Source of the DNA: an uncultured Candidatus Micrarchaeota archaeon
Lineage (GTDB): Archaea; Micrarchaeota; Micrarchaeia; Anstonellales; Bilamarchaeaceae
Assembly: GCA_963723105.1 (NCBI GenBank)
Contig: CAVRPK010000004.1
Coordinates: 4,765-68,764 of the forward strand
Direction: 5' to 3'
DNA length: 64,000 nt
Numbering within the stretch: the first letter of the stretch is position 1; each line of letters begins with the position of its first letter. The notes below the pieces were generated by a model. The model searched no databases and was not told the DNA's origin. It saw only the letters and a list, made by a program, of their open reading frames with translations. Of this stretch, positions 345-46,982 are shown piece after piece. A program made the translations under genes and the position numbers.

Positions 345-438
345 GGAAATTAGTTGCTCCTATGCTATTAAATTCATTTCTAGTTTCCAAAATAGATATC
401 AGATTTATATATGTACGTTTTCATATATATTCGATTTA

Positions 439-2938: not shown

Positions 2939-2950
2939 GGTGAAAAAACT

Positions 2951-4162: not shown

Positions 4163-5388
4163 TGAATCTAATAGACGTAATGATCTACGGACTGAAAAAC
4201 CTCTCCAACCGCAGCATGCGCAGTTGGCTTACGATCATTGGTATGGTTATTGGAGTAATTGCTATTGTAGTTATTTTGTCTATTAGTGAAGGATTCAACA
4301 AAGATATTCTGGATCAGATGTCTGCATTTGGTGCAGATCAGATGATTATATTTCCAATATCTGATATAAGTCAGGCCTTTAGCGGAGGAGGATCTATTGC
4401 ATCGCCTCAGACAAGTGGAAAATTATTCCAGGAAGATGCTGATGATGTCGAGAATATCCCAGGGGTGAAAAATGTTGTCCGCTCTATTTTTGGCAGGGCC
4501 ACCCTTTCTTTCAAGGATAAAAATATCACGGCAACCATCATTGGTGTTGACCGGAACATGTTTGACATGTACGGCGATTATATCGAAGTTGAATCAGGTC
4601 GGATTTTCAAAGACGGAGAGAGAAATGTTGCGTTTTTTGCAGCTGATGCTGCAACTGAATATTTTGGAAACGACAAGATAGAATCCGGGAGTGTCATAAA
4701 GCTAAACGGCAAGAATTACCGTGTTGTTGGCATCCAGAAAAAAATAGGCACTTCACTTTCACAGGCAGATGATTCCTCAATATACATCCCATTTGATGAT
4801 GCAAGGGATCTATTCGAAGATCAGTTCCTTGATGATGAAGTTGGGTATATGATGGTTCAGATTGATGAAGGATTTGATGCCGATGAAATCAAGGAAAAAA
4901 TAGAGATAAAACTAGCAGACAATCATCATGTTCGTCTTGATGACAAGGACTTTTCAGTAATCACTTCAGAACAAATTTCTGAAATTGTAGGTACTGTCCT
5001 TCTTAGTGTACAATTAGTTTTGGCAGCAGTTACTCTCATTGCTTCAGTTGTTGGTGCAATTGGAATTGCAAATACAATGTTCATGAATGTTCTTGAGAGG
5101 ATAAAGGAAATCGGAATTCTCAAATCTGTCGGTGCTCGAAGAAACGATATTTTGAAGATCTTCCTAGTTGAAAGTGCAATGATAGGTCTTGCCGGCGGAA
5201 CAATAGGTTTGATTCTTGGTTATATCGCACTTGAGCTTTTGGTGGAATTCTTTGGCGTTCCAGCATTTCTTAGGTTGAGAATCGTTGCATTTGTGTTTCT
5301 CTTTTCAGTTGGAACCGGAGTTCTTGCAGGATTTATTCCTGCATGGCGCGCTGCAAAGCTGGATCCTGTAGATGCACTCAAATTCTGA
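4162..5388 (+). CDS. ABC transporter permease, MacB/FtsX-type (paralog)
   Basis: Same architecture as 2951..4162, with GIANTMFMNVLERIKEIGILKSVGAR. TAATG overlap with the upstream gene. Confidence 0.85.
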   Translation: MNLIDVMIYGLKNLSNRSMRSWLTIIGMVIGVIAIVVILSISEGFNKDILDQMSAFGADQMIIFPISDISQAFSGGGSIASPQTSGKLFQEDADDVENIPGVKNVVRSIFGRATLSFKDKNITATIIGVDRNMFDMYGDYIEVESGRIFKDGERNVAFFAADAATEYFGNDKIESGSVIKLNGKNYRVVGIQKKIGTSLSQADDSSIYIPFDDARDLFEDQFLDDEVGYMMVQIDEGFDADEIKEKIEIKLADNHHVRLDDKDFSVITSEQISEIVGTVLLSVQLVLAAVTLIASVVGAIGIANTMFMNVLERIKEIGILKSVGARRNDILKIFLVESAMIGLAGGTIGLILGYIALELLVEFFGVPAFLRLRIVAFVFLFSVGTGVLAGFIPAWRAAKLDPVDALKF

Positions 5389-6950: not shown

Positions 6951-7107
6951 AATACAACCCCAAACAAGAATTAGAATAAGTAATATCTCGCGCCTTTTTT
7001 AACTCCACACCACACGAACTCAGAAATTCCGTCAATCGCCACTGTAAAAATGCATTGTTTTCCAGTTAGCTATTTATACTTTCCTAATTTAAGTCAGAAA
7101 TGATTCT

Positions 7108-9159: not shown

Positions 9160-10358
9160 AGTTGAAGGAAAAACTGTCTTAGTACGTGTTGATCTCAATT
9201 GTCCTCTTGAAAATGGCAAAATCACTTCTCATATACGTATTGACGCACATGCAGTTACTCTAAAAAATCTCAGTGATCGTGGTGCGAAAGTAGTCGTTCT
9301 CTCCCACCAGGGTCGAAAAGGAGCTGATGATTTTGTTACTCTTGAGCAGCATTCAAAAATTCTTCAGGATATACTAGGGCGCGAGGTTCTATTTGTACCT
9401 GACATGATTGGTCCTGTTGCTATTGAAGCGATTTCAAAAACTAAAAAACGGCCAAATTCTTGTTCTTGATAATGTGCGTCATCTTCGCTGCGAAACTGCC
9501 CATCCACATGCAAAGGGTGAAATTGTTTATCATCTTTCTCCTCTTGCAGATTATTTTGTTTTGGATGCATTATCTGTTGCTCACAGAGCACACTCAAGCA
9601 TCATAGGTTTCAAGGATAAGATTCCTTGTTTTGCCGGAGATGTTCTTGCAGAAGAGCTTGATGCAGTCGACAAGATCCGCCAGAGCGACGACGTAACATT
9701 TATCTTTGGCGGCTCCAAGGTTAAAGATTCATTTAAAGTAATGGACAAATGGCTTACTGATGGCAGGGCAAAAAAAATTCTCGTTGGTGGGGCGCTTTCA
9801 GTTCTATTGCTTCGTGCAAATGGCAGCAATATAGGCGGCTCAAGTGAATATTTAAAAGAATCAGGACTTGACAAATACCTTCCAGCTGCAATTAAGATGA
9901 TTGAAAAATATGATGGAAAAATTCATCTTCCAACTGACGTTGGACTTTCATTTAAGAAAGAAGAGCATGGCCGTCAGGTTGTTTGGGAGCGGGTAGAATC
10001 AGACGTTTCAAAAATAGAAACCGGTCAAATCTGGGACATTGGTGAAAAGTCCACAAAAGAGTACTCAGATGCAATCTCTTCTTCCAAATGCATTGTGATG
10101 AATGGCCCTGTTGGAGTTTATGAAATTGATAAATTTTCAAAAGGAACAAAAACAATTCTTGATTCAATTGCAAAGACCAGTGTCTTTTCACTTCTTGGAG
10201 GCGGTCATACGCTTGCTGCTCTTGAAAAATTTAATATTGATAAAAACCAGTTTGGTTATGTGAGCTTATCCGGCAAAGCCCTTATTGCATATCTGTGCGG
10301 AGACAATCTTCCAGGCCTTGTTTCACTGGAAGAAAATGAGAAGCTCTTTGATATGTAA
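9137..10358 (+). pseudogene. pgk: Phosphoglycerate kinase interrupted by a +1 frameshift in an A5 run (9436-9440); a true pseudogene or an assembly error
   Basis: Track ORFs 9047..9469 and 9408..10358 together encode one PGK. Frame A reads MRKIANHEVEGKTVLVRVDLNCPL..HQGRKG..IGPVAIEAISK. Frame B continues LKNGQILVLDNVRH..FIFGGSKVKD..GGGHT. Removing one A restores AIEAISKLKNGQILVLDNVR. ATG 9137 overlaps the topA end by 23 nt. Confidence 0.85.
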
Positions 10359-10402
10359 AGTTTTATATATAATCGTGCAACTAACTAGGCAGGGGTGACT
10401 CT

Positions 10403-11515
10403 ATGAACCTGGATACAGATATTGTTGAAACTGTCAGAAAAGAACACGGCGAGGAAAAAGTAATTCTATCATTGGAACAAAAAGGTTTCTGTGTCTCCCT
10501 TCTAAAAAACGGAGAAACAAGTGAAAAAGAAGTTCGCAATGTAAAAGAGTTTGCTGATCTTATAAAATCATCTTCTGTGTCCTGGGTCGACTATATCGTA
10601 GAAGATATTGCGCGGGATGCTCCAAAGGTTTCAACTTCACTAGGTTTTAGCGAGCAGCTTATCAACACACTTATTACACGTACCTCAGAAAGTGGTTATG
10701 AAGATCTTGATTCTGAGATGGGTCTTCTTGTTCCTGTTATTTTTGCAAAAGGTTTTGACGTTAGAATCGATTACATGATTCTTCTTATTCGTAAAAACGT
10801 AGTTGTCACTATACACACAACCAAATCTACCAGGTTCTTCAGATTGAGGCGCTATGGGAAAATTTTCATGAAGAAGATTAAGCTTAAGCTTTCAAAACAA
10901 GACAAGATAACTCAAATAATTTCTCGTCTTCTGGATGAAAACAACAGCAGAAACTTTGATACCCTTCGTGGAATAGAAATTGCTGCAGATAAAATAAGTG
11001 AAATGCTCTCTCGAACAGATTCAGATCGTGAAGAAGTTGGAAAGGAAATTCACAAGATGAAACATGCACTTATGATTTACATGAATGGTCTTTGGGAAAC
11101 CATTGATGTGCTCAACACATTACGTTATGGAGACCCAGAGCTTCTCAGTGATAATAGGAGGCTTCTCGAGCGTATCGGCGCGCTTACTATTGAAACCAAT
11201 TATCAGATTGAACTTGCAGAACACATGAGCCAGGTGCTATCAAGTGGCCTTGAGGTTATGCAAAGCATTTACAACAACCAATTGCAGCTATTGAATAATC
11301 GGCTTTCACTTCTTGTTGCATATCTTACTATCATTGGTACTGCGGTTCTTGTTCCAAATACTGTTGCAACTATCTTTGGTGTTCCATTCTTTGATTTTGG
11401 TCCTGATTTTCTTCCATTTTATTACGCAATTATCATTGGTTCTACCTTGATCTCTCTGATACTTGCTTATATGTGGGTTAGGACTACTGGTCTTCTTCCT
11501 AAAGATCCAGAATAA
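10403..11515 (+). CDS. CorA-like divalent cation transporter, divergent (GVP in place of GMN)
   Basis: Large cytoplasmic N-domain plus two C-terminal TMs. The loop TVATIFGVPFFDF sits where CorA has YGMNF. SD-like AGGGGTGA lies 5 nt upstream of the ATG. Confidence 0.55.
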   Translation: MNLDTDIVETVRKEHGEEKVILSLEQKGFCVSLLKNGETSEKEVRNVKEFADLIKSSSVSWVDYIVEDIARDAPKVSTSLGFSEQLINTLITRTSESGYEDLDSEMGLLVPVIFAKGFDVRIDYMILLIRKNVVVTIHTTKSTRFFRLRRYGKIFMKKIKLKLSKQDKITQIISRLLDENNSRNFDTLRGIEIAADKISEMLSRTDSDREEVGKEIHKMKHALMIYMNGLWETIDVLNTLRYGDPELLSDNRRLLERIGALTIETNYQIELAEHMSQVLSSGLEVMQSIYNNQLQLLNNRLSLLVAYLTIIGTAVLVPNTVATIFGVPFFDFGPDFLPFYYAIIIGSTLISLILAYMWVRTTGLLPKDPE

Positions 11516-11605
11516 TTTTTTCTTATTTTCTTTATCTACTGCTGATTTTGCCAATTCATAAACTATATAAATATTCTTGTTCAAACCCAAAACCCGGCGA
11601 TCTAT

Positions 11606-12922
11606 ATGAAAAGAACAATGTTTGTGCAAAGAGCAAAGGATTTGCTAACTAGGCCTATTACTTTCAAAGGTGCAGTAGAATTTATTTCAAAACTTTTTAA
11701 GCCAAATGAAATCGTTCCTATGGCTGAGCCAATAATAAAGACCCAACCAAAAGAGCGTACTGTTGATTCTGGTCTTTTTTTCCCAAATAAGCAGTCTGCA
11801 AGAACTCCTTCTCTCACTGAGCAGGGAGAGCGATATAGGAAAAATGCAGAGCGGCTCCGTAAATTTGATGCTGAACATGAGGCAAATGAACTTGATCTAA
11901 AGGCTGCTGAAAAATTCATTGAAGCTGGCCTTCTTGGAAAAGCCGAGGAAATTGGCTTAGAGTTCAAGGAGCGCGGAAGCTTTATGATCGCTGCAAAGAT
12001 ACTTTCCAATTCTGGTGCTATTCCATTCTTTGAGCTTTTGGATAATCTTGTTGAGATGGGACTACCCAAAATTGCCCAGAGAATTATCACTGAATGTTCT
12101 GGCCCAAGGGGGCTTGTGAAATATAATGAAATGTATAAACCTGCTCCAGCAGCACTAGCACAGGCATTCTCTGACCAAGAACTTATAACTTATTCAAAGA
12201 AAATGCTGCTTCAGAGGAAGAGGCATCATGTTTTCCAGCTTGCTGAAATCACTGAGAATGCAGGAAGGTTCAATGCTGCTTCTTCTCTGTATGATTCTCT
12301 TGGAATGCACAAGACAAGTACAAAGGCCAGGATAAAGGCTCATGTTGCGGATGAGAACTACCTGGATGCAGCACAACTTGCCTTAGTATATAATATGGAA
12401 GTTGAAGCACGTGATTTGGGTTTCGAAGCAGCAAAGGCAGGACAAATCATTGTTTCAGCAGAAATCTTCAATCTTACTGGAGATAAAAAAACTGCCCATG
12501 CATTTGCAGCACAGGCAGCAACTCAGTCTGGGGATGACCCTGCTGCAGTTGAACTCTTCTTCAAGTCTGCAGATTATGGCTCTCTTTTCCTTATGAGTGG
12601 ACCTGATAAGGATCTTCTTATTTCATGCTCCAGGAAGGCTCTGACTGATGCTCTTCGCCACCTTTCAAATGACAATCTTCAATTATCATATTTCCACTCT
12701 CACAGGCCTGAGATTCTCGAAGGCGCGCTCCTGCTCTTTGAAGCTGGAAACAAGCAGGAAGCATTTGAATTTGCAAGTTCTATGAGGATGCTTGCCGATA
12801 GGCTCTCAAGTCCATTCTGCTTTGAAGTTGCTAAGAGAATATATGAGCGTGGTGCAGTAAGTCTGCTGCGAAAACAGTCTCTTGCACCAGTAATTCCATT
12901 GCGTTCGTCTGCTGCAGCATAA
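11606..12922 (+). CDS. Hypothetical alpha-helical repeat protein (438 aa)
   Basis: Long ORF with a TATA-like ACTATATAAATA about 30 nt upstream. Ala/Leu-rich helical repeats and no motif I recognise. Confidence 0.6.
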   Translation: MKRTMFVQRAKDLLTRPITFKGAVEFISKLFKPNEIVPMAEPIIKTQPKERTVDSGLFFPNKQSARTPSLTEQGERYRKNAERLRKFDAEHEANELDLKAAEKFIEAGLLGKAEEIGLEFKERGSFMIAAKILSNSGAIPFFELLDNLVEMGLPKIAQRIITECSGPRGLVKYNEMYKPAPAALAQAFSDQELITYSKKMLLQRKRHHVFQLAEITENAGRFNAASSLYDSLGMHKTSTKARIKAHVADENYLDAAQLALVYNMEVEARDLGFEAAKAGQIIVSAEIFNLTGDKKTAHAFAAQAATQSGDDPAAVELFFKSADYGSLFLMSGPDKDLLISCSRKALTDALRHLSNDNLQLSYFHSHRPEILEGALLLFEAGNKQEAFEFASSMRMLADRLSSPFCFEVAKRIYERGAVSLLRKQSLAPVIPLRSSAAA

Positions 12923-15612: not shown

Positions 15613-16554
15613 ATGAAAGCGCTTATCTTTGCGGAAGGCAATGGTTTTGGCCATGCTTCCCGCGATTCAATTATTTCAGAAAAATTCAATTTTCCTATCA
15701 TGACCTTTGGCAATGGGGCCCAATTCTGCAAAATGAATGATATTGATTTGATAGAAATTCCTGCTCCATACACTATCAAAAAAGTAAAAAACAGAGTCAA
15801 GATAGTAACAAATCCTGGGGAGATACTGAAGCTGGCGAGTCCCAAAACAATCCAATCAATCAAAGAGCATTTCGCAGATTATGATTACATCATCGTAGAT
15901 GGCTCTCCTCTTGGCCTGGCAATTTCTATGGCCATGAAAAAGAAAGCAATATACATCACCAATGATACCTCATCCTTGGTTGGCATCAATGGAAAAGTTT
16001 CAAAAAAAGTTGCAGCTTCTCTATATAATCAAATATTATCCTATCCGGAAAAAATAGTTATTCCTGATTTTTCTCCTCCGCTTACAGTAACTTCAAAAAA
16101 TCTAAATCCAAACCTTCCGATGGTTTTCAGCGGACCACTCGTCAAGAAAAGAAAACAAATCTCTCATAAAAAGAAAATCATAGTTGCAGGAAGGCTTGAA
16201 GAAGAGCTTCGGCCATTTCTTGGAGATGATGCACTATATGGGAATACTGTGGAACATCTAAGTTCTTACTATCGGGACTGCGAAGTTGTAATATGCCATG
16301 GTGGACACACAACAATCATGGAAGCTCTTTCATTTGGAAAACCTGTCATTGTTATTGAAAACTCAAAGCATACTGAGAGATACAACAATGCACTGGTTCT
16401 TGAAGAAAAAAATGTTGGAATTGTTTTAGAAAAATACATTCTCACAAGAGAAAGCCTGCATTCTGCAATTGAATATGCAAAAACCCTGGATCACTCAAGA
16501 CTTTCATTATACAAAAAACAATCAAAACCAAATCTGGATGTTTTTTCTCTTTAG
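15613..16554 (+). CDS. GT-B glycosyltransferase (MurG/GT28-GT1-like, archaeal MJ1255-type)
   Basis: N-terminal EGNGFGHASRD and C-terminal ICHGGHTTIMEALSFGKPVIVI nucleotide-sugar binding motifs. Confidence 0.7.
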   Translation: MKALIFAEGNGFGHASRDSIISEKFNFPIMTFGNGAQFCKMNDIDLIEIPAPYTIKKVKNRVKIVTNPGEILKLASPKTIQSIKEHFADYDYIIVDGSPLGLAISMAMKKKAIYITNDTSSLVGINGKVSKKVAASLYNQILSYPEKIVIPDFSPPLTVTSKNLNPNLPMVFSGPLVKKRKQISHKKKIIVAGRLEEELRPFLGDDALYGNTVEHLSSYYRDCEVVICHGGHTTIMEALSFGKPVIVIENSKHTERYNNALVLEEKNVGIVLEKYILTRESLHSAIEYAKTLDHSRLSLYKKQSKPNLDVFSL

Positions 16555-19248: not shown

Positions 19249-19755
19249 ATGCGAAATTTTCTGTTTGGTTTTTCATCTGGCCTCATAATCTTTTTCTTAA
19301 TCTCTACATTCTTTCTTCAACCTGAAATCAATCCTGTTTTTTCTCCTGAAGATGGATCTGAAATCATTAACCTAATCAAAAATGCAGAAGAATCTATTGA
19401 AATTGAAATGTATGTTTTTACTTCAAGAGATGTTGTTGATGAGCTGGAAAAAGCAAAAAACCGCGGAGTCAAAATTCGACTAATAATAGAACGAAGCACA
19501 ATCAGCGGAAGCAACAAACAAATTTTTGAAGAACTCCAGGCAAAGGGATTCAACGTCAGATATGCAAGCAAAACCTACAAGCTTACTCATTCCAAATTCA
19601 TGATTATTGACAATAAATCTGTCTTGGTAGGCTCTCACAATTTCAGCAATTCTGCTCTTTTCAAAAACCGGGAAGCATCAGTAATTATCTCTGAATCAAG
19701 TACAGTATCTGAATTCCTTTCTGTTTTCGAACTTGACTGGGCAATTGCATCATGA
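19249..19755 (+). CDS. Phospholipase D-family single-HKD nuclease (Nuc-like), membrane-anchored or secreted
   Basis: N-terminal hydrophobic segment GLIIFFLISTFFL. HKD motif HSKFMIIDNKSVLVGSHNFS. Its 168-aa size matches homodimeric Nuc-type endonucleases. Confidence 0.75.
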   Translation: MRNFLFGFSSGLIIFFLISTFFLQPEINPVFSPEDGSEIINLIKNAEESIEIEMYVFTSRDVVDELEKAKNRGVKIRLIIERSTISGSNKQIFEELQAKGFNVRYASKTYKLTHSKFMIIDNKSVLVGSHNFSNSALFKNREASVIISESSTVSEFLSVFELDWAIAS

Positions 19756-19796: not shown

Positions 19797-20639
19797 ATGG
19801 CAAAAAGACTAATGCTTGGAAAAAATGAAAAGGTAGATATCAAAGAGCATTTAACGAAAAAAAAGCAGAAATATCAGCTTTTAGATGCAGACAAAATGCT
19901 TTCTATGGATACGAAAAAACTACCAATCAATGAAGCATGCGAACAGCTGCTTTCTAATTTATTCGGTAGCACTTCTTCTCCTGAAATAATAGATGCTGTT
20001 GCCGATTTCCTGAAAGAATCAACCTCTATGGATGATCTTGATATCCGAACCAAGCTAGTTCCCCAACTCCTTGCTTTATACTATCGCAGCATGCCAAAAA
20101 TGCGAACAACTCATAAAAAACCAAATCTTTCTTCGGCATTCATGGGTCTCTCTTCTGAAATGAGAAAGATGTCCATACAAGAATTAGGGAAATATAAGGT
20201 TGGAATTGTTTTTAGGAATTATGAAGAAGAAACCGGAAGAACTCATGATGTGAGGGTTTCACATTATGATTATGATCCAACTGGAAACGCACAGCCAACT
20301 CCTAATTTTGAAGGAATTCCAAATATGCGGACTGTATCAACATATGATTTTACTCTAAAGAGATTATGGACCGCAGATAGAATACTGAAAGCGTCTGCTA
20401 CAATCATTGCAGCGGCTGGAATTGCCTGGTATCTTGCTTCAGCATTTGGGTATCCGCCTCCGCACAGATTACTTGTTCCATCGCAGAGAACTGAACTTAT
20501 GCAAAATTATGAAGATGATTCCTGCAGAAGAATCGGCCCATTCCACAACCTTGGCGATTCCCTGCTATCAACAGAGATCAGCCTCAAGCGTGCAAAGATT
20601 CTTTGTGCTGAAGAATTATACAGAAAAAACAATCCCTAG
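19797..20639 (+). CDS. Hypothetical protein with one C-proximal TM (280 aa)
   Basis: ORF with TM ASATIIAAAGIAWYLASAFGY. No motif recognised. Confidence 0.5.
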   Translation: MAKRLMLGKNEKVDIKEHLTKKKQKYQLLDADKMLSMDTKKLPINEACEQLLSNLFGSTSSPEIIDAVADFLKESTSMDDLDIRTKLVPQLLALYYRSMPKMRTTHKKPNLSSAFMGLSSEMRKMSIQELGKYKVGIVFRNYEEETGRTHDVRVSHYDYDPTGNAQPTPNFEGIPNMRTVSTYDFTLKRLWTADRILKASATIIAAAGIAWYLASAFGYPPPHRLLVPSQRTELMQNYEDDSCRRIGPFHNLGDSLLSTEISLKRAKILCAEELYRKNNP

Positions 20640-21646
20640 CTTCTCTGGATGACATATCTTCCATAAAGCTTTGCAAATATCCTGTATTTGCCCCGGTCAA
20701 GCTTTACAATCTGCCCGCGATCCAGCAATCTTTTGATTAGTGCTGTTATTGGGCCAAGAGGCTTTCCAAGCTCTACTGCAATCTCAGATACATGCATGCT
20801 TTCATTTTTTGCAAGAACCAGCAGTATTTCTTTTTCAGCACCAGGAGTTTCCTGATACATTTTTCCAAACCATTCACGGGAGAGCATACTCATAATATAT
20901 GGAAGATAAGCAAGGTAATGTCCTTTTGAAATAACTTTTTCATTGTCCCGAAGCCTTGCATATATGTGGTGGCAGACTGTTTTGAAAAGAAGTGGATTTC
21001 CCTGTGTATCATTCATTATTGAGTTGAAGCATTCTTCTCCCATCTTTGGCGATTCCTTTCCAAGAGCTTTTTCAACAACTTCATGCCCCTCGTGCTCTTC
21101 AAATGCACCAATCTTCATTTTTTTGACTACTGAAGAGCTGAATTTGAATTCCCTGGTCGAGCTTAGTACAAAACCAGCTGTTTTTTCTCCCCAGACTTCC
21201 TTCAGTTCTTTTTCTATCTCTGAAATAGCATCATTTGACTTCTTCATTTTATCAATATCATCGATGAAAAACACAGTTCCAAAGTGTTTTCCGCCCATTT
21301 CAATGACTTCAATAAGCTCTTTCACTGTTTTTGGAGCTGTTTTGCCTATCTTGGCCCCTGGAATCACTCTCATTTCATTATATAACTTGTCTATAGTTAC
21401 TCCCAAGCTCTCTCCTTTCTCTACTTTGGTATATGGCGCTAGGATGCCGCTTTTCTCTGCCAAATAGCCAAAATGGCGAAGAAGTGTTGTTTTTCCAGTG
21501 CCAGGTACTCCAAATACTAAAATCCCTCCTCCTTGCTTTGAGGTTGCTTCATTTGCGAAACTGTTAAATATGCGAACTTCGTCTTTCCTACCAGCTATTT
21601 CTTTGGGGTTTTCGTCCCAAAGTACGAACGGATTTGGGCCTTTCAT
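20636..21646 (-). CDS. AAA+ 'archaeal ATPase' (Arch_ATPase/ORC-like) with C-terminal winged helix
   Basis: Walker A GVPGTGKTTLL and Walker B TVFFIDDIDK. The C-terminal ESMHVSEIAVELGKPLGPITALIKRLLDRGQIVKLDRGKYRI is wHTH-like. Confidence 0.7.
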   Translation of the reverse strand: MKGPNPFVLWDENPKEIAGRKDEVRIFNSFANEATSKQGGGILVFGVPGTGKTTLLRHFGYLAEKSGILAPYTKVEKGESLGVTIDKLYNEMRVIPGAKIGKTAPKTVKELIEVIEMGGKHFGTVFFIDDIDKMKKSNDAISEIEKELKEVWGEKTAGFVLSSTREFKFSSSVVKKMKIGAFEEHEGHEVVEKALGKESPKMGEECFNSIMNDTQGNPLLFKTVCHHIYARLRDNEKVISKGHYLAYLPYIMSMLSREWFGKMYQETPGAEKEILLVLAKNESMHVSEIAVELGKPLGPITALIKRLLDRGQIVKLDRGKYRIFAKLYGRYVIQRS

Positions 21647-21845: not shown

Positions 21846-24800
21846 ATGAGCGTTAACAAGTATGTTTTCGGAGCATTGGTGTTCCTATTACTGGTTGGCA
21901 GTGTATCTGCTGGCTTCTTTGGAGCACAAACCGATATGGAGAGTCAAGTAGTCGTAGTTCCAGACGAGACAGGTTTATTGCTGAACATCAGCGTATTGAC
22001 ATTTGAACCTGCAGTTAGTACTGGTGGAACTAATATCAGAGACGTCATGCAACAGATTGTTACTGACTGTCAGGCTGAAGGCGGGGATCTCCAAGCTTGT
22101 ATTAATAGAGAATCTATAGCAAGGACTGCTTCATCTACAGGCTACCAAATGAATCTAACTTCTCTTCAAAACGCTCGTGTTACTGTAGAAATTTACAATC
22201 CAATGACCCAAGGATATACTCAAGTTACTAACTGTGGGGACCTTACTACTAATATTCATGGACTTGCATCTATTCCTGCAGAATCTGGTCAAACTGAAAC
22301 AGTAGACAATTGGTACGCTCAATGTGATCTTTCTGAAGCTGTTGAAGGACAAACCCGCTCTTCATTTAGGGTAATGTATCTCCCAGCAGATTCTACTAAT
22401 ATCAGTATGAGTTTTACACAATACGAATATGACAATGCACAAGTATCTGTTTCAAGTGCATTCACAGCAAGCTTAAACAGTGCAATAAATGGACTTGCTC
22501 AGAGTGAAACACTTCCATGTGTTGGTGTATTCCTTATACTTGGACTTCTATTATCATCATTATACTTTTCAGGCAAGTCACCAATATCACTTCTTGATAT
22601 TACTACTCCAAGGCTACCTGCTCCAAAAGGTGTTACGGCCGGAGGACAAATGCTCATGCCTTTTGGTTATACGGAAATGAAAAGAACAACAAAGGCAAAG
22701 ATGGCAGCAGCTGCCGGTGCACTTGCTGTTTCTGCAGGTGCAATAGCAAATTCAAGAAGAGGAGATTCTGTTCTAAATAGATTAAATGGCAGAGTTGCAG
22801 GACTTAATGGAACTGCAGCAGACAGAGCAGCTGGAGATGTTGCAGAAGGAAGAAGAATCGCAAGTTCTCTCATTACAGCTGGTCGAACTGCCGGAATGAG
22901 CGAGCAGGAACTTGAGAGACTTGCAGCAAGACTACCATATCATTATGGAGACGAAGAGCACAGAACTATTGCTCAACTTCTCGAACGTCTACAAGGTATG
23001 GGCGGCAGAGAAAGATTAATGGCATTAACACTCAAGGACTATATGCTTGGTCTAAGACAATATCAATCTCTTGAAGTTCTTACAGCACATCCAGATATAG
23101 GAAAGAGAAGTGCAGTTCACCAGAGAATGTCCAACGTGCTTACAAAAACTGTTGGTGTTAACAGATATGCAATCATCGGTGGTTTTGTTCCTGGTACGCT
23201 TGACTCTACTGTCAGAACTGGAAGAGTAGTTGGAAGAATGGGTAAAGGAATGGTTACTCATGCTCCAGAGCTTGCAAAAGCAACTGCAAGGACAACAATG
23301 TCTATGCTCGGAGGCAGAAAGATAGCAGAAGAGCGTGGAAGAAGCGGATCTGCTGTTGCTTGGGTAAATCAACAAGCATCAAAGAATCCGGCATCACTTA
23401 TCATTGGACAGGCATTCCCTGTTAGTGACAAGATGGGCCATCTTTACAACCAGCTTAACAAAGAAGCTCACAACGACTCAATGAGATATGTGCTCAAGCA
23501 GCTCTACAAGAAAATGGGAATGAAATTCAATGTGTCTTCAGAAGAGCTTGCAACAATGGGACACATCGATGTTGATATCCTAAAAAGATCTGGATTCAAA
23601 CAAACCGCAGAACTTGCAGCACTTGAGAAAGAAATCGGAAGAGTACTTTCAAACTCTACATTCAACTCACAGCAAAAACTTTCTGCACTTACTAGTCTTG
23701 CAGAATCTCATGGAGCTCACATTGATCACCAGATGCTTCTCTTTGCACAAAAGCTTGAGGCAATCAACACCTCTGGACATGACGATCATGTCAAGCTTAT
23801 CATGCTTCAGGAGGAGATGGAAAGACAGAACAAAGTCAGGCTTGCAACCTATGCAACTGGCCATGTTAATGACGATACATTCGTCAGCCATGTTGGTGGA
23901 GACACACTTCGTGGAAGTCAGGTCTGGGAGACAATGGTTCTTCGTACTATGATCTATGATCATGAGAATGGACAGGTTCATGGTGGCGGAATTAAGGAAG
24001 AGCTTTTATCAGCCAGACTTAATGTTGCAAACAGACTTGGTTCACTTGATCCTTCATCTTCAATGCACGAGCTTCCAGAGCACATGAGAAATGCTGGTCA
24101 GCTCAAAGCAGTAACTGCAAGAAACAAGCACGACCTTATCGAACTTTTCACAGCAGAAGGGCGAGAAGCATTCCAGCGAAATCAAGGTAAAAGTATCACT
24201 ACTGCTTCAATCGGTGACATAGTTGGATTCATGGCTGGTGGTGAACTTAACCGTACTGGTCATGTTGACAAAAAAACTGGACGTATGGTTTGGTGGGGAG
24301 CTGATATGGAACTTGCTTCTCCAGCACACTTTACCAAGGTCGATACAAAGAGACACTGGGTTAAAGATCTTAATCCAGCAGAGAACTTTGCAATTGGTCA
24401 GTGGACTGAATCCAGAATGACTAAGAGCTATGTTCCTCACTTTGATGCAGCACAAGAAGCACAACTTGATAGAATGTCTGGTTCCAGTGGATGGACAAAT
24501 GAGCAGAGAACCAATGAGAAAAAGAAACTCATGGTAGCATCTGAACTTTCCAAAGATATGGAGCAAAGATTCAACTCACAGTTTGGCCACAACACATATG
24601 GAACAACAAGGGAAACTACGAGGTTCTATAATGGTGTACTTTCTGGCTTTATGGAAAAAGCTCTTGAAGAAAAAGGTCTTTCAGCAAATCATCCAGACCT
24701 TAGATTCATTAAAGAGATGGATACCACAAACCCAGATCATCTTGCAAAGCTTAGAGATCTTATGGTTACACACAAGAAAGAGTATGAAGCTGTTCTTAGT

Positions 24801-26555
24801 AGACCTGTTAGCTATGATGATATTGCAAAATCAAACAAAGCAATGGTCATGCTTCATGAAGGTGGTTTTGCATATTACTCTAAGGGTATGATGCTCAGTG
24901 ATGCAGACCGTGTCATGGCTGGAGAAGTTTCACTTCGAGATGACAAGGGCCAGCTTCGTAAATTCGTTCCAGAAGATGTTCCAGTCAACTTTGCTGGCCG
25001 TGATGACCTTATGAGACAATATCAAAAGGTCGGAGGATCTAAGGATCCAAATGAATGGAAATCATTCATAGGCGAAGCAACTAAATGGGCAAAGGAAGGT
25101 GGATACAGCTACGACAAGGAGAAGGTGCTTGCAGCAGTTCTCTGGAGTCAAGCCGGTGCAACTTATAACTACTCCGACTACTGGAAGCACAGTGCAGTTA
25201 CTGTTGCTCCAAAGAGAGAAGTTACTCCAATTGCACCATCTCCAATGAGATTCTTCGGAGCAGAAGGACATACATTCACTACTATGATGAAGCCATTTAG
25301 AGACATTGGACTTCATGGTGGGGACTACATTTCCAAAGTTGCACTTGCAGCAGGTGGTTCTCTACAGAAAGCATCCTATGATATTACTCCAACTTCAGAG
25401 TACTATAGGCAACACTCATGGCAACTTTCCAGCAAGATCATGTCTGGTCAGGATATGAAAGGTCTATCTGAAGCAGAGAAAGTAGCATACAGGAATGTTG
25501 CAACTCAGCACTACGCATATCACCAGGTGTGGGACTATGCAATCGACAGAAACCCATGGAGAACATCAACTTCATTTGGTACTCACCAATCATGGGCTTC
25601 ATTCTTCCACTTTGGTCCAGCATCAAACTTTGATGTTCGTGATAACCTTCGAGGATACATGGGCAAGGGTGAATATGCAAACTTCATGTCACTCTATGGT
25701 TTCCCAATGAATGCTGCTGCAAAGCTGATGAAACCTTATGCAGGTATGGTCAGAGGTATGCAGATGTCTATGCAAGGTTATGCATCCAAATGGGATCAAA
25801 CGCCTGATGCACTTAAGCAATGGAACTTCACTGAACCAAGACTTCGAGAAGCTATGCAGTCAATTAATCCATTTTCTGCTAAATGGTTCTCAGGTAAAAC
25901 TTCGGAGAGGGTTGCCAAGCTTAATGTCTTTGGTGGAAGTCTTGAGCAGCACCAGCTTGCAGGTAATGACTACATGGGTGGTCTTAAGCAGGCTCCTCAG
26001 GATATATTCCTACAGAGAAAGGGTGTTTATGCATCTGCTAGAACTGGTGAAACAAATCCAGGAGCTAGCTTCATGGACTATAGGGCAAACCTACACGTTG
26101 ATGCTCCAATGGCAGAGTACCTGATCAGAAACAACGAAGCAGCCTACAAATATGATAAACAGATTCAGTCTGAGGCTATGAACAACACCACAAGGAGAAC
26201 AGTTTCTGCTGAGGCACTTTCTCTTAGAAGAGATCAGGAGCTTCGTGGATTCGGCGCAATGCAGAACCCACTTTATGGTTGGGCTAACCCACTTGCATTC
26301 CTATGGCATGCACCGGTACCACTGTTCCCACAGTCACTTACTCCAAAGGATATCATTGGAAATGCAGTGAAGAAACACAAGCATGGCCATGGTGGATCTT
26401 GGGAGCAATCTGTTGCTAATGCAGGAACAGGAGTTGCTCGTGGAACAAAGAGGCTTCTACAACCCCATCTCATTGCAAGACAGGTCTACTGTCCTAAGTG
26501 TGGCCGTGGTGGTCTTAGAGGTGCAACCTGTCAGTGCGGACAGACCCTCTATTAG
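21846..26555 (+). CDS. Giant orphan membrane-tethered protein (1569 aa) with C-terminal zinc ribbon
   Basis: One uninterrupted 4.7-kb ORF. Signal/anchor FGALVFLLLVGSVSAG, a ~200-aa ectodomain, and TM LPCVGVFLILGLLLSSLYF. An A/G/R-rich linker leads into ~1250 aa rich in M/H/W/Y/G, ending in CPKCGRGGLRGATCQCG. No catalytic motif recognised. Confidence 0.8.
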   Translation: MSVNKYVFGALVFLLLVGSVSAGFFGAQTDMESQVVVVPDETGLLLNISVLTFEPAVSTGGTNIRDVMQQIVTDCQAEGGDLQACINRESIARTASSTGYQMNLTSLQNARVTVEIYNPMTQGYTQVTNCGDLTTNIHGLASIPAESGQTETVDNWYAQCDLSEAVEGQTRSSFRVMYLPADSTNISMSFTQYEYDNAQVSVSSAFTASLNSAINGLAQSETLPCVGVFLILGLLLSSLYFSGKSPISLLDITTPRLPAPKGVTAGGQMLMPFGYTEMKRTTKAKMAAAAGALAVSAGAIANSRRGDSVLNRLNGRVAGLNGTAADRAAGDVAEGRRIASSLITAGRTAGMSEQELERLAARLPYHYGDEEHRTIAQLLERLQGMGGRERLMALTLKDYMLGLRQYQSLEVLTAHPDIGKRSAVHQRMSNVLTKTVGVNRYAIIGGFVPGTLDSTVRTGRVVGRMGKGMVTHAPELAKATARTTMSMLGGRKIAEERGRSGSAVAWVNQQASKNPASLIIGQAFPVSDKMGHLYNQLNKEAHNDSMRYVLKQLYKKMGMKFNVSSEELATMGHIDVDILKRSGFKQTAELAALEKEIGRVLSNSTFNSQQKLSALTSLAESHGAHIDHQMLLFAQKLEAINTSGHDDHVKLIMLQEEMERQNKVRLATYATGHVNDDTFVSHVGGDTLRGSQVWETMVLRTMIYDHENGQVHGGGIKEELLSARLNVANRLGSLDPSSSMHELPEHMRNAGQLKAVTARNKHDLIELFTAEGREAFQRNQGKSITTASIGDIVGFMAGGELNRTGHVDKKTGRMVWWGADMELASPAHFTKVDTKRHWVKDLNPAENFAIGQWTESRMTKSYVPHFDAAQEAQLDRMSGSSGWTNEQRTNEKKKLMVASELSKDMEQRFNSQFGHNTYGTTRETTRFYNGVLSGFMEKALEEKGLSANHPDLRFIKEMDTTNPDHLAKLRDLMVTHKKEYEAVLSRPVSYDDIAKSNKAMVMLHEGGFAYYSKGMMLSDADRVMAGEVSLRDDKGQLRKFVPEDVPVNFAGRDDLMRQYQKVGGSKDPNEWKSFIGEATKWAKEGGYSYDKEKVLAAVLWSQAGATYNYSDYWKHSAVTVAPKREVTPIAPSPMRFFGAEGHTFTTMMKPFRDIGLHGGDYISKVALAAGGSLQKASYDITPTSEYYRQHSWQLSSKIMSGQDMKGLSEAEKVAYRNVATQHYAYHQVWDYAIDRNPWRTSTSFGTHQSWASFFHFGPASNFDVRDNLRGYMGKGEYANFMSLYGFPMNAAAKLMKPYAGMVRGMQMSMQGYASKWDQTPDALKQWNFTEPRLREAMQSINPFSAKWFSGKTSERVAKLNVFGGSLEQHQLAGNDYMGGLKQAPQDIFLQRKGVYASARTGETNPGASFMDYRANLHVDAPMAEYLIRNNEAAYKYDKQIQSEAMNNTTRRTVSAEALSLRRDQELRGFGAMQNPLYGWANPLAFLWHAPVPLFPQSLTPKDIIGNAVKKHKHGHGGSWEQSVANAGTGVARGTKRLLQPHLIARQVYCPKCGRGGLRGATCQCGQTLY

Positions 26556-26592: not shown

Positions 26593-29202
26593 ATGAGAAT
26601 CATCCTTTTGTTTGCTTTAGGCCTAGTGCTTATTTCCGGATGTTTGCAATCTGTTGGTGGAGATAGTTATACAACTGATTATGCAAATGATTTGGCACGT
26701 GTTGCTATAACTGATCCTGATCAGGTTGCACAGTGTGAATTTGGAAAATGCTGGTGCATGGTCTGTGAAAACGGAACTAATATTTTTGGAAGCTCTATTA
26801 CAAGTTTGATCGGTGGATACTGCTATCTTGAGCAAGACTGCAATGAAACTGTTTCACATTCACTTTATTCTACAAATGAAACTCCAAGTCTTTCAATTCG
26901 TGGTTTTATGATAGGCCAAGGTCCTACAATTGCTGATTTTGCAGATGCAACTCCATATTGTTCCTATCGACTTAACATGGCTGTTCAGTTTTTGAGCGCA
27001 ACAGAAGAGTCTCCATATCTTCTTCCAGATGCAGGGCGGTCAATGTGCCTTCTTAGCAAGGATGTTATGCCTGTCTATGTTCTCTACAGCGGTGGAGAAA
27101 ATATCAACAATACAAGAGCCCGGATGGTTGGTGAAGTGCTTGGAACAGAAGGTGATGATCTGTTTCTAGGAAGGCTTTCTGATGGTCCTGTTGGTCCTGT
27201 TGTTGTAGTTACTGAAATAGATTTCAATCGCAGTGATGTTAGCCAAATTGCAGATCAGGTTCGTGCAGTAAATGACGGCTGTCGAAATGTACGATCTGGT
27301 GATGATGCTCGGGTCAATTGCTGGGTTGCAGTTTCTCCAAAGTTCAATGACTTTGATTCTCTAAATGCAGTAATGGCACAGGTTGGAGATCAGGTTGATC
27401 TTATTTCCTTTGGAGTAAATGGGAAATATGTTGATGCATGTACTAATAACAGAATTAATACTGGAAAGATGATGAATCAAATTCGAAACTATACAACTTA
27501 TGCACTTTATAATCTCAGTAAACCAACAATTATTCCATATGTTTTATTTGATCCTGGAACTTCTGATGTTGGTGGATGCAACTGGACTGAGGCTGATGTA
27601 GTTTCAGCATATGCTGCATTCTGGCCAAATGGAATTCAATCTTTGCAGCAAAAAGGACTGATCGGAATTGCTCCTTATTCATTTAATTCAAGTGATTATG
27701 GATACATTGCAAATCCACTTGGATGCAATGCCTGTTCTGTTGGTTCGAGCGATGCAAGAATGCGCGCATGGTATGGCTGGTGTCAAAGTTATACAAATGT
27801 TTCAGGAAGAAACTCCCCACATCCAGGTGGTGGAACTCCAATAATTTTCCCAAATGCTTCTGGTGGTTATTGTGATTTCAATGCCCAGGCAGACTATTTG
27901 CTTCGGGAAGTGAGCTTTATGGATTCAGGTTCAAACAGGGATCTTATGAATCCTCAAACTCCAGATGTTAGGCCAGCTGGCGATCCGCTCTTTCGCTGCA
28001 GTGCATGCGTTAATTATAATTTGAGTCTTGATGCACTATCTCACTTTTCATTTGATCCAAACGAGGGAGCACCTCCAGAGCGATACTGCACTGCATTTCC
28101 GCAAATTGAGCATTGGGCAGATGCTAGAAATTTAGACCCTATGTTTGTTCGGGCAGTTATACTTACTGAAAGTGGTTTTGATCCATGTGCTGCTGCAAGA
28201 GTTTGCCGTGGCGGTTATGATGATGGCCAATGTTTCCAACCTGGTCCTGGGGTAGATGAGTGTTATGCAAAACCTGCATATAATGAAATGTGGGATCCTG
28301 ATGTTACCTGCAATGTAAACCTTACTCCAGCAGCAAACTCCAATTCAGATAATCCTGATTGGCGTTGGTGTGCCTTTGGTTTGATGCAGGTTATCAAACC
28401 TCCCTATACATACTGGCCTGCATCTGCTCATCCAGACGGTGTAGATGGAACATACCTTGATATTTATGAGCAAACTGGTTTCTATCCGCAAGAGCTTGAT
28501 TCAGTTAAGGCATGCGCAAATCCAAGCGGCGAATACAATCCATTTAATCCAAGCCATTCCATTTGCGCAGGTACTCTTGGAATTGCAAGTCAGCTTCGTT
28601 CTGCCAGAGGGATAGTGGATTCATCTCATAGTGCCGGACTACTTAATTGGGATGCTGGTGATGTTGAGAAAAATGAACTATTTGCATACTATATCGTCGG
28701 TCACCTGTATACTGGTTTCTGGGGCGCTGCAAATAGACATAATGTTGGTAGTATTCCAGCTCCATGTGGTATTGGGACAATTGGAAATGGGGATTGTCTT
28801 CTCCAGGAATTCCATAAGGCATGGACAGTTACTGATGAATACTGTGAATCTGATGATGGGCAAGCCGATACAATAGCCTGCAGTGGTGATCATCCAAGAG
28901 TGGATCCTCCAGAAGCATGTTATGGATATACTGATATCCTTCTATTTTATCAAGATTGTATACAGCCGTTCTTGCAAAGAGAGGCTGATCCTGGAAAAGA
29001 AAAAATGGAAGCATATTTGTGGCTTCGTGGATGCCCGAATAATATGTGTCCGGATGGTCAGGCTTTAATCAATGCAATCTGCACACCTGATGCAACTGGC
29101 CAGGTTGATCCAAGTCTTTGCATTGGTCCAAATCAACCTTTAGTAACTGGAAATCCATACATAATAGATGAGGAAGCTGAGGAAGAAACTCCAGAAGAAT
29201 GA
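26593..29202 (+). CDS. Secreted Cys-rich lipoprotein with SLT/GH23 lytic transglycosylase-like domain (869 aa)
   Basis: Lipobox signal LVLISGC. About 40 Cys in total. SLT core RAVILTESGFDPCAAA (catalytic Glu codon at 28168-28170) and FGLMQV (28375-28392) are separated by a ~70-aa Cys-rich insertion. Confidence 0.7.
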   Translation: MRIILLFALGLVLISGCLQSVGGDSYTTDYANDLARVAITDPDQVAQCEFGKCWCMVCENGTNIFGSSITSLIGGYCYLEQDCNETVSHSLYSTNETPSLSIRGFMIGQGPTIADFADATPYCSYRLNMAVQFLSATEESPYLLPDAGRSMCLLSKDVMPVYVLYSGGENINNTRARMVGEVLGTEGDDLFLGRLSDGPVGPVVVVTEIDFNRSDVSQIADQVRAVNDGCRNVRSGDDARVNCWVAVSPKFNDFDSLNAVMAQVGDQVDLISFGVNGKYVDACTNNRINTGKMMNQIRNYTTYALYNLSKPTIIPYVLFDPGTSDVGGCNWTEADVVSAYAAFWPNGIQSLQQKGLIGIAPYSFNSSDYGYIANPLGCNACSVGSSDARMRAWYGWCQSYTNVSGRNSPHPGGGTPIIFPNASGGYCDFNAQADYLLREVSFMDSGSNRDLMNPQTPDVRPAGDPLFRCSACVNYNLSLDALSHFSFDPNEGAPPERYCTAFPQIEHWADARNLDPMFVRAVILTESGFDPCAAARVCRGGYDDGQCFQPGPGVDECYAKPAYNEMWDPDVTCNVNLTPAANSNSDNPDWRWCAFGLMQVIKPPYTYWPASAHPDGVDGTYLDIYEQTGFYPQELDSVKACANPSGEYNPFNPSHSICAGTLGIASQLRSARGIVDSSHSAGLLNWDAGDVEKNELFAYYIVGHLYTGFWGAANRHNVGSIPAPCGIGTIGNGDCLLQEFHKAWTVTDEYCESDDGQADTIACSGDHPRVDPPEACYGYTDILLFYQDCIQPFLQREADPGKEKMEAYLWLRGCPNNMCPDGQALINAICTPDATGQVDPSLCIGPNQPLVTGNPYIIDEEAEEETPEE

Positions 29203-39283: not shown

Positions 39284-40057
39284 ATGGATTTTTTTGAAGC
39301 AATAATCCTCGGTATCATCCAGGGTATTGCAGAATGGCTTCCTATAAGCTCTGAAGCAATGGTTACCCTTGCTGGAAAGTTTCTTTTTAATACAGAATAT
39401 AAGGAAGCACTTGGTACTGCAATTTGGCTTCATAGCGGCACCACTCTATCTGCTATTATCTATTTCCGTAACGATGTTATTACAATAATAAAAAGCATTT
39501 TTAGTGGAAACCGAAGTTTATTGTTTTTTTTGACAATTGCAACTTTATCCACATCAATAAGTGCAATTCCTCTTTTGCTTCTTGCATTTTCAATAGAGCT
39601 TCCTGATGTTCTATTTACTCTTTTTATCGGGATTTTTTTGCTTCTCATCTCTTATCTTCAAAAAAGCAAACACATCTCAAAATCAGATGATTCAACAACT
39701 TCAAAAAAAGCAGTTATATCTGGCATTGTTCAAGGTTTTGCAGTTCTTCCTGGAGTGAGCAGATCTGGATTGACTGTTGCAGCATTGCTTTCTCAAAAGT
39801 TTTCATTGAAGGAATCCCTTAGGTTAAGTTTTTTGATGAGCATTCCAGTTACTGGCGGAATCCAGATCTTTCTTCCTCTTGTAAGCGATGGTTTCAGTAT
39901 AACTGCTCCTTTGATTCTTGGAAGTCTTGTTGCTTGTGCTGTGGGGCTTTTGACTATAAAAACACTGATGGAATTTGCACAGCGCATTAGTTTTGTCCGG
40001 GCAACATTTGCTCTTGGTGTTATTGTTATTCTTCTTGCAATAGTTCTTGCACTGTAA
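39284..40057 (+). CDS. uppP: Undecaprenyl-diphosphatase (UppP/BacA family)
   Basis: MDFFEAIILGIIQGIAEWLPISSEAM and the PGVSRSG motif. Multi-TM. Confidence 0.85.
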   Translation: MDFFEAIILGIIQGIAEWLPISSEAMVTLAGKFLFNTEYKEALGTAIWLHSGTTLSAIIYFRNDVITIIKSIFSGNRSLLFFLTIATLSTSISAIPLLLLAFSIELPDVLFTLFIGIFLLLISYLQKSKHISKSDDSTTSKKAVISGIVQGFAVLPGVSRSGLTVAALLSQKFSLKESLRLSFLMSIPVTGGIQIFLPLVSDGFSITAPLILGSLVACAVGLLTIKTLMEFAQRISFVRATFALGVIVILLAIVLAL

Positions 40058-46858: not shown

Positions 46859-46982
46859 CGCCTCGGGGAGGATTCGAACTTCCGGCCTGCTGATGTCTGT
46901 AACTGAATAATCAGTTTTGATCCAACTTTTTCCAAAAGTTGGAATAACAGTCAGCCGCTCTAACCAGCTGAGCTACCGAGGC
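46859..46982 (-). tRNA. tRNA-Asn(GUU) with 50-nt canonical (37/38) intron
   Basis: The minus strand reads GCCTCGG-TA-GCTC-AGCTGGTTA-GAGC-G-GCTGA-CTGTTA. The intron follows at 46895-46944. The 3' exon is A-TCAGC-AGGCC-GGAAG-TTCGAAT-CCTCC-CCGAGGC-G. There is one A:C mismatch in the T stem. Confidence 0.8.

Follow-up and report, generated by a model that had tools for sequence, protein, structure and literature searches.

We analysed a 64,000-nucleotide (nt) stretch of contig CAVRPK010000004.1 from an uncultured Candidatus Micrarchaeota archaeon of the Bilamarchaeaceae, called the window below, with a focus on the gene for a Cys-rich predicted lipoprotein and on the giant gene directly upstream of it. 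The lipoprotein open reading frame (ORF) runs from an ATG start to a TGA stop and encodes 869 amino acids (94.6 kDa, isoelectric point (pI) 4.3) with 13 N-x-S/T sequons and 38 Cys (4.4%), of which about 26 are invariant. The original prediction, made from the letters alone, had put the Cys count at about 40, so its description as Cys-rich stands with a slightly lower number. Conservation was followed in a core alignment of 42 homologs and in a wider-family set of 212 sequences, for which the denominators vary by column. The gene and its parts are as follows, with the evidence in brackets.

26593..29202, plus strand: Cys-rich lipoprotein gene (ORF list, composition, 70 full-length homologs, 309 clusters)
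26593..26643, plus strand: signal peptide and lipobox L-I-S-G-C, with Cys17 as the predicted lipidation site (Gly-Cys conservation, hydrophobic segment)
26710..26889, plus strand: N-terminal Cys-rich cap, residues 40-99, with C48, C53, C55, C58, C77 and C83 and the motif C.C[MV].C (Cys invariant or nearly so)
26890..27852, plus strand: (beta/alpha)8 barrel like those of clan GH-A glycoside hydrolases, residues ~100-420 (Foldseek, DSSP)
27214..27216, plus strand: Glu208 codon; the residue is a candidate catalytic acid and closes barrel strand beta4 at its C-terminal end (conservation)
27550..27552, plus strand: Asp320 codon; the residue ends strand beta7 and is a carboxylate kept in the core clade only (conservation)
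28078..28200, plus strand: SLT/GH23 core segment 1, residues 496-536, a helix with D515-P516, R520 and Glu526-Ser527 (Pfam SLT positions 3-33; aligned to EtgA and MltC)
28168-28173, plus strand: codons of the predicted catalytic Glu526-Ser527
28201..28356, plus strand: insertion 1, residues 537-588, with 4 Cys, between ES and GLMQ (excision test)
28357..28416, plus strand: SLT core segment 2, residues 589-608, a beta strand with G596-L-M-Q599 (conservation, EtgA and MltC alignments)
28417..28521, plus strand: insertion 2, residues 609-643 (excision test)
28522..28737, plus strand: SLT core segment 3, residues 644-715, with the NPFN...C.GT helix and Y706-x-G708 (conservation)
28738..29199, plus strand: C-terminal Cys-rich helical extension, residues 716-869, with 10 Cys and an acidic tail, packed on the SLT core (C-domain model)

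The first 17 residues, MRIILLFALGLVLISGC, end in the lipobox (...L-V-L-I-S-G-C17), and residues 1-23 at the N-terminus are the sole hydrophobic segment of the protein. The pair G16-C17 is invariant (42/42), as would be expected of the lipobox claimed in the original prediction, and the Cys is found in 173 of the 174 aligned wider-family sequences. A lipobox has been defined as a signal peptide ending in [LVI][ASTVI][GAS]C, and the end of the present signal peptide falls within this pattern; predicted lipobox lipoproteins and AliA were described as prevalent in DPANN archaea in the same work (PMC12462473). Together, the invariant Gly-Cys pair, the 38 Cys and the 13 sequons argue for a location at the cell surface. 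We lean, by a small measure, towards a surface enzyme that is secreted, rich in disulfides and anchored by a lipid, and that has two modules for glycan cleavage; its lipidation and its activity are predicted. An identity as the protein of the S-layer (SLP_Mh, PF05123) was rejected, as the lipoprotein gave no PF05123 match and has its 38 Cys; the published Micrarchaeota S-layer protein carries PF05123 domains and has almost no sulfur-containing residues (bioRxiv 10.1101/2021.04.28.441871).

As judged from sequence profiles and a structure model, the C-terminal half of the protein is a split SLT/GH23 core with two insertions and a Cys-rich extension of 150 amino acids. The predicted catalytic Glu-Ser lies in AVILTESGFDPCAAA (residues 521-535). 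E526 is invariant (42/42) and kept in 186 of 199 wider-family sequences, and S527 is found in 36/42 and 176/199, respectively; the conservation of the catalytic Glu across orthologs, on which the original prediction had staked its assignment, was thereby checked and upheld. The motif FGLMQV follows at residues 595-600, with G596 invariant (191/194 in the wider family) and Q599 in 40/42 (185/196). Further downstream, N649, P650, F651, C658, G660, Y706 and G708 are conserved as well, and so are Cys 751, 763, 776, 789, 814 and 819 of the C-terminal extension. Within Y706-T-G708, the Tyr is kept in 175 and the Gly in 178 of about 190 wider-family sequences. Distant members have AAYYYNG or AAYRYNG here, which come near the classical AYNxG motif, and Y706-T-G708 may be its counterpart; the Pfam alignment ends at profile position 85 of 117.

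Glu526 and Gly596 are 70 residues apart, and the equivalent spacing in E. coli MltC is 15. These 70 residues had been taken at first for the length of a Cys-rich insertion. An insertion between ES and GLMQ is indeed present and contains four Cys, but 70 is the spacing, and the net insertion is about 52-55 amino acids when compared with MltC (33-59 within the family). The second insertion, which separates GLMQ from the NPFN...C.GT helix, had been missed. When the isolated region of residues 495-730 was searched intact, it matched Pfam PF01464 with 26.2 bits (E=6e-6, profile positions 3-33), above the gathering threshold of 21.3. In silico excision of residues 537-588 raised the score to 32.6 bits (positions 3-45), and the additional excision of residues 609-643 raised it to 35.6 bits (positions 3-85 of 117), by which the number of matched positions grew from 31 to 83. 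A real SLT core into which two foreign segments had been inserted would be expected to behave in this way.

The insertion-free core was also turned into a profile (A4, built from 25 members) and run against the PDB sequences. Ten of them were matched at E≤1, all of which are GH23 proteins (EtgA with E=0.001, an EtgA fusion, MltC, several MltE and goose-type lysozyme). The alignments are unbroken from DP..RA...ES through G[LI]MQ and place Glu526-Ser527 on the catalytic ES of EtgA and MltC. Earlier PDB sequence searches with the whole protein had given marginal matches only, and the excision of the insertions was needed first. An AlphaFold2 model of residues 470-869, calculated with the family alignment, reached a mean predicted local distance difference test (pLDDT) of 90.6 and a predicted template-modelling score (pTM) of 0.87. 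When this model was compared with the PDB by Foldseek, the 39 top consecutive matches were GH23 lytic transglycosylases (LtgA/Slt, MltE, MltF, MltC), with g-type lysozyme lower in the ranking, and the named matches in the BFVD were nearly all LT_GEWL, SLT, muramidase, endolysin or tail-lysin proteins. The split SLT/GH23 core of the original prediction is hence borne out by Pfam after excision, the PDB profile search, two fold libraries and the invariant Glu.

About 480 residues at the N-terminus had been left unassigned. They have no match to a sequence family, but the model of the full-length protein (pLDDT 84.4, pTM 0.85) contains a TIM barrel resembling clan GH-A. It is preceded by the cap, which forms short beta strands in the model and whose motif C.C[MV].C is retained in distant relatives. 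The barrel consists of eight alternating β/α units by DSSP, mostly with a pLDDT above 90, and its conserved residues gather at the C-terminal ends of the strands. Foldseek matched it to PDB entries of GH53 galactanases, GH5, GH26, GH2 β-glucuronidases and GH51 with a probability of about 1.0, E-values of 2.3e-5 to 1e-3 and target TM scores of about 0.5; matches to DltD (E=0.03-0.3) were treated as noise. With this clan (the 4/7 superfamily) it shares the (β/α)8 fold and, where β4 ends on its C-terminal side, a conserved Glu. This residue, Glu208, follows the strand of residues 203-206 (the strand number was taken from the DSSP order, not from a superposition), is invariant in the core alignment (42/42) and is Glu in 177 of 185 wider-family sequences, and the barrel domain is probably catalytic through it. 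In the strand sequences that were looked through, the His, Asn and Trp conserved in GH5 could not be seen.

The lipoprotein gene does not stand by itself, and the features of its giant partner and of the divergent neighbour are listed here.

21846..26555, plus strand: giant partner gene, product of 1569 amino acids, 173 kDa, pI 9.0 (ORF, 75 homologs, conserved features)
22503-22655, plus strand: transmembrane helix and juxtamembrane motif KSPISLLDITTPRLP, residues 220-270 of the giant
26481-26552, plus strand: C-terminal C4 zinc ribbon of the giant
20636..21646, minus strand: AAA_16 ATPase with C-terminal winged helix, divergently transcribed (Pfam AAA_16, AAA_22, HTH_24)

The giant protein starts with a signal peptide (residues 1-23) and an ectodomain (residues 24-219) with four invariant Cys, followed by a single transmembrane helix, the almost invariant KSPISLLDITTPRLP.PKGVTAGGQ segment and about 1300 residues with zero Cys. 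This distribution of Cys fits an N-out, C-in topology. The transmembrane/juxtamembrane motif, ...LLGLLL.SLYF.GKSPISLLDITTPRLP.PKGVTAGGQ, is the sole part recognisable in distant relatives (E about 1e-17). The 75 homologs belong to Micrarchaeota wherever they are named. Searches of Pfam, PDB profiles and PHROG returned zero matches, and among them no similarity to components of type IV secretion systems (T4SS) was detected.

In 37 of 38 loci fetched by tblastn, the giant gene lies directly upstream of the lipoprotein gene on the same strand, the exception being a 3.2-kb fragment, and the two genes carry consecutive locus tags in seven further genomes. The tight pairing suspected in the original prediction was thus confirmed by co-occurrence. 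The genes are 37 nt apart in the window and overlap by 4 nt in locus L003, and they are probably co-transcribed, as far as can be told from their arrangement. In the loci L009 and L014, a gap of about 1.4 kb lies between them, which holds an extra low-complexity ORF of 384 amino acids in the L009 lineage. L009 (metagenome-assembled genome (MAG) DeMMO3_13) also carries tandem lipoprotein duplicates of 852 and 878 amino acids (6968-9526 and 9513-12149), both with ES and G[IL]MQ kept. Even for the divergent relatives P0227 and P0263 (L040 and L041), a giant ORF of 2143 or 1817 amino acids precedes the lipoprotein in a different neighbourhood, and these giants match that of the window over the transmembrane/juxtamembrane segment only (E≈1e-17). 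The pairing in 37/38 loci and in the divergent relatives points to an old, vertically inherited pair.

Among the other neighbours, the AAA_16 ATPase gene lies upstream of the giant in almost every locus with a sufficiently long flank; its winged-helix product is a possible regulator. Topoisomerase VI lies downstream in most loci. No type III secretion system (T3SS), T4SS, flagellar or pilus cluster is present at the locus, the neighbours being the giant, the AAA_16 ATPase and topoisomerase VI. An ORF of 280 amino acids (19797-20639, plus strand) without Pfam match occurs otherwise only in the closest relative, L004; it adjoins a PLDc_2 gene (19249-19755, plus strand), which L002 and L003 also have upstream of the module.

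With regards to the distribution of the family, a word-indexed search returned 70 full-length lipoprotein homologs of 780-960 amino acids with 26-89% identity, all annotated as "hypothetical" and from Micrarchaeota wherever named. Among species-representative genomes, 35 loci were detected, each of them in Micrarchaeota or in MAGs of unclassified archaea; one, 97% identical to the query, belongs to isolate Modern_marine.mb.41. An exhaustive profile search of 1.84 billion representatives, clustered at 50% identity, yielded 309 clusters with E≤1e-3, and 204 of these reached E≤1e-30; further names recovered among the distant relatives were Micrarchaeota or Bilamarchaeaceae only, and there were no bacterial members among the named matches. 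The genes for topoisomerase VI A and B lie directly downstream of the lipoprotein gene, and TFIIB, RtcB and a KH/PNO1-like protein are encoded in the window, which together with the names of the homologs agrees with the archaeal origin given in the original prediction. The GC content of about 0.42 at the gene is close to that across the window (0.36-0.43) and gives no island signal, and the position beside topoisomerase VI argues for a vertically inherited core gene and not for a recent transfer. On these comparisons of sequence and gene order, the giant and the lipoprotein are an old, vertically inherited core module of Micrarchaeota.

Clues to the substrate came from two relatives. In P0253 (1094 amino acids; L039, 10001-13285, in an archaeal context), the first insertion is shorter, the SLT match covers profile positions 4-82, and a CHAP domain is present at the C-terminus, which scores 30.1 bits where the cutoff is 26. 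In the P0263 pair, a YkuD_2 gene of the L,D-transpeptidase fold directly follows the lipoprotein (L041, 10989-12029). CHAP domains are peptidoglycan amidases or endopeptidases, and the CHAP fusion and the YkuD_2 neighbour point to a peptide-cross-linked polymer of the murein type. The original prediction had offered either a bacterial neighbour or host as the target or a repurposed domain, and between these the two relatives lean towards a murein-type substrate. P0253 is flanked by two Laminin_G_3 surface proteins, with a DUF87/P-loop_TraG (VirB4/HerA-type) ATPase gene two genes downstream, and a homolog search with it returned only itself and one weak match. A tail resembling SGNH/GDSL esterases in the relative P0240 was rejected, as it scored 14.7 bits (E=0.036) where 23.6 is the cutoff.

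Taken together, the explanation that we favour, at slightly better than even, is that of a lipid-anchored enzyme with a barrel and a GH23/SLT module that would cut a foreign wall of the murein type. The lipoprotein would stay on the surface of the cell, where it may dock to the ectodomain of the giant, and would cut the glycan strands of a wall built from units like N-acetylglucosamine (GlcNAc) and N-acetylmuramic acid (MurNAc) on a neighbouring or host cell. Glu526 would act as the single acid/base, as in lytic transglycosylases, which split the MurNAc-GlcNAc bond without hydrolysis and leave 1,6-anhydroMurNAc, and the wall would be opened for contact or nutrient scavenging. The pair of lipoprotein and giant may hence be the lineage's tool for breaching the wall of another cell.

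Several observations weigh against this explanation, and they bear on different parts of it. To begin with the SLT assignment, the Pfam SLT score of the whole protein is 19.8 bits (profile positions 3-35 of 117) and stays under the gathering threshold; a precomputed PF01464 match exists for only one of the 70 homologs, and individual fold matches of the C-domain are weak, with a best E of 0.017 in the PDB and 0.008 in the BFVD and TM scores of at most about 0.5. Such values could be read as a chance motif without a real SLT domain, and bacterial contamination or a recent horizontal transfer could be suspected as well. However, four independent lines converge on GH23, the gene has archaeal flanks and keeps its synteny across 38 loci (the contigs reach 1.57 Mb), a strong GC anomaly is missing, and the named matches contain no bacteria, by which an artefact is effectively refuted. 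Weak fold scores are expected for a core with about 240 residues of embellishment, and the match of the isolated region, which exceeds the gathering score with E=6e-6, is together with motifs kept down to 26% identity more than chance would be expected to produce. By curated score and fold statistics, the membership in GH23 is marginal, with the catalytic motifs in place.

The second group of observations concerns the catalysis. The residue at the end of β7 is Asp320 and not Glu (40 Asp and 2 Glu among the 42 core homologs); in the wider family, Asp or Glu is found in only 130 of 180 sequences, and distant members have Ser, Ala or Lys. E208 and D320 of the core clade had hinted at a classical two-Glu GH-A mechanism, which is weakened by this; as distant members lack the β7 carboxylate, the barrel does not fit a definition of clan GH-A by two Glu. 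By analogy with barrels acting on N-acetylhexosamines, one might speculate about a substrate-assisted mechanism with a single carboxylate. In searches of Pfam, NCBIfam and PDB sequences, the barrel half also matched no GH family defined by sequence. In the SLT-like fold, Gln replaces the catalytic Glu in the three stand-alone C-domain paralogs P0219, P0226 and P0235, which implies that the fold can persist without catalysis; these three are probably non-catalytic binders, judging by the substitution. Such stand-alone C-domains (P0212, P0214, P0219, P0223, P0226 and P0235) have about 330-445 amino acids with a lipobox of their own and a linker rich in Pro, Ala and Ser, and in L042 (6149-7393) the stand-alone form lies in an archaeal housekeeping context with no giant gene adjacent.

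The Gln variants, the poorly conserved β7 carboxylate and the very heavy disulfide-rich embellishment would all suit a non-catalytic adhesin or structural protein, in which the two folds bind glycans or form a rigid, Cys-knotted ectodomain that caps the giant. We consider such a protein quite improbable, since Glu526 (186/199) and Glu208 (177/185) are kept down to about 25% identity, a conservation typical of catalytic residues, and the Gln variants are limited to a separate group of short paralogs.

The third group concerns the target and the arrangement of the genes. The only cultured Micrarchaeota live on Thermoplasmatales, which have no wall and thus no murein to cut (bioRxiv 10.1101/2021.04.28.441871), and no genes for murein synthesis are found in the 64,000-nt window. 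The gap of 37 nt between the giant and the lipoprotein is T-rich and AT-rich and may contain a separate promoter or terminator. Present in the window are a protein consisting of a GT28 C-terminal domain only (MurG/Alg13-like; 15613-16554, plus strand) and a BacA/UppP polyprenyl-diphosphate phosphatase (39284-40057, plus strand); the two are compatible with N-glycosylation, and these gene types are also cited for bacterial-type envelope pathways in DPANN.

The same folds might therefore act on an archaeal glycan, with the SLT fold repurposed for sugar scavenging or for remodelling of the cell's own envelope. Candidate substrates would be the glycocalyx or lipoglycan of a host, the pseudomurein of methanogens, chitin-like GlcNAc polymers, or the cell's own S-layer or N-glycans. 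A core gene that is near-universal, is passed on vertically and has housekeeping genes for neighbours fits a constitutive function of the lineage better than an occasional weapon, and the cultured Micrarchaeota, besides their wall-less hosts, have an S-layer and no synthesis of activated sugars of their own, so that host sugars are needed (bioRxiv 10.1101/2021.04.28.441871). The presence of a second, GH-A-like barrel from a clan that acts on many non-murein polysaccharides would fit as well, and so would a window with just the GT28-C protein and BacA in place of genes for murein synthesis. On the other hand, family-1 lytic transglycosylases have a signature of ES and GLMQ to which the family adheres strictly, and both the CHAP domain fused in one relative and the YkuD_2 protein adjacent in another belong to types acting on the peptides of peptidoglycan. 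GH23 enzymes are also not known to act on any archaeal glycan. Repurposing is thus possible, with a probability well short of even, and a foreign murein-type wall is ranked ahead of it, though not by much.

A comparison with known systems places the C-terminal half closest to the family-1 lytic transglycosylases (GH23/PF01464; E. coli MltE, MltC and Slt70, Neisseria LtgA, and EtgA of enteropathogenic E. coli). Shared features are the Glu-Ser at the end of a helix after DP...RA, the G-L-M-Q strand and the downstream N-P...G helix, to which a Tyr-x-Gly of possibly equivalent position and weak matches to lysozyme-like folds may be added, and MltE and MltC are lipoproteins, too. In contrast to these enzymes, the core in the window is broken by insertions of about 52 and 35 amino acids, carries the 150-residue Cys-rich extension and is fused to a TIM barrel of 320 amino acids in a protein with 38 Cys, and its archaeal host has no murein. 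EtgA, the best solved sequence match, serves a membrane-spanning apparatus; unlike for EtgA, VirB1 and PrgK as specialised lytic transglycosylases, no T3SS or T4SS genes lie near the window gene. The wall hydrolases of Gram-positive conjugation combine SLT and CHAP (PrgK of pCF10, TraG of pIP501), as does the relative P0253 with its VirB4/TraG-like ATPase gene nearby, whereas the protein of the window has no CHAP domain and no flanking conjugation genes.

Within DPANN, the large SLT proteins of Woesearchaeota and Pacearchaeota (fam00969; PMC8204110, PMC9723730) resemble the present family in their secreted GH23-type domains. They have been read as tools to attach to or attack bacterial walls (Castelle et al. 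2021, PMC8204110; Vigneron et al. 2022, PMC9723730). These proteins reach up to 3000 amino acids, belong to other phyla, have a distribution that was called patchy and are easily annotated as GH23, whereas the family in the window is about 870 amino acids long, specific to Micrarchaeota, lipid-anchored by prediction, fused to a barrel, paired with a giant and vertically inherited; the comparison covers the SLT core. In addition, archaeal peptidoglycan hydrolases of other lineages were shown experimentally to kill bacteria (PMC12352652). For Micrarchaeota, a single sentence mentions a "lytic murine transglycosylase" in three genomes (PMC5864196). Pfam detects the family only sporadically (an SLT match at E<0.01 in 7 of the 42 core members), which accounts for its having gone unnoticed apart from that sentence. 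The statement in the original prediction that murein hydrolases had been noted in some DPANN genomes was therefore right (PMC8204110, PMC9723730, PMC5864196). Its impression of novelty holds for the fusion and the giant pairing, as no description of the barrel-plus-split-SLT architecture, of the status as a phylum-wide core gene or of the obligate pairing with the giant was found in the literature, but the bare presence of an SLT domain in Micrarchaeota is already known.

Two further features of the window lie apart from the module. An Rfam tRNA call of 55 bits and 124 nt at 46859-46982 (minus strand) is probably an intron-containing archaeal tRNA; ARAGORN reports zero tRNA in the window. An operon-like cluster at 343-5388 (plus strand) comprises an ABC ATPase, a CARDB/NPCBM_assoc surface protein of 482 amino acids and two MacB-type FtsX permeases, and it may serve in export or efflux, with the surface protein as an associated component.

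Very few Micrarchaeota have a known host or a known way of attaching to it, and the present finding makes the host question testable by enzymatic means. Two possibilities are raised by it: either many Micrarchaeota meet murein-walled cells, or a wall-cutting fold of bacteria gained an archaeal substrate. A bolder idea, which we regard as rather unlikely at present, is that the giant and the dual-glycosidase lipoprotein form a phylum-wide apparatus for contact or penetration, in which the lipoprotein would be the wall-cutting head on the ectodomain of the giant, and the cytoplasmic domain of the giant with its zinc ribbon would couple the breaching to an intracellular process. If this were true, many non-acidophilic Micrarchaeota would attach to or prey on murein-walled bacteria, and not only on wall-less archaea. 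In any case, what is encoded by this phylum is extended by a GH-A-like barrel that is so far unclassified and by a conserved, wholly uncharacterised partner of 170 kDa, and the pair offers a concrete target for electron cryo-tomography and proteomics of DPANN contact sites.

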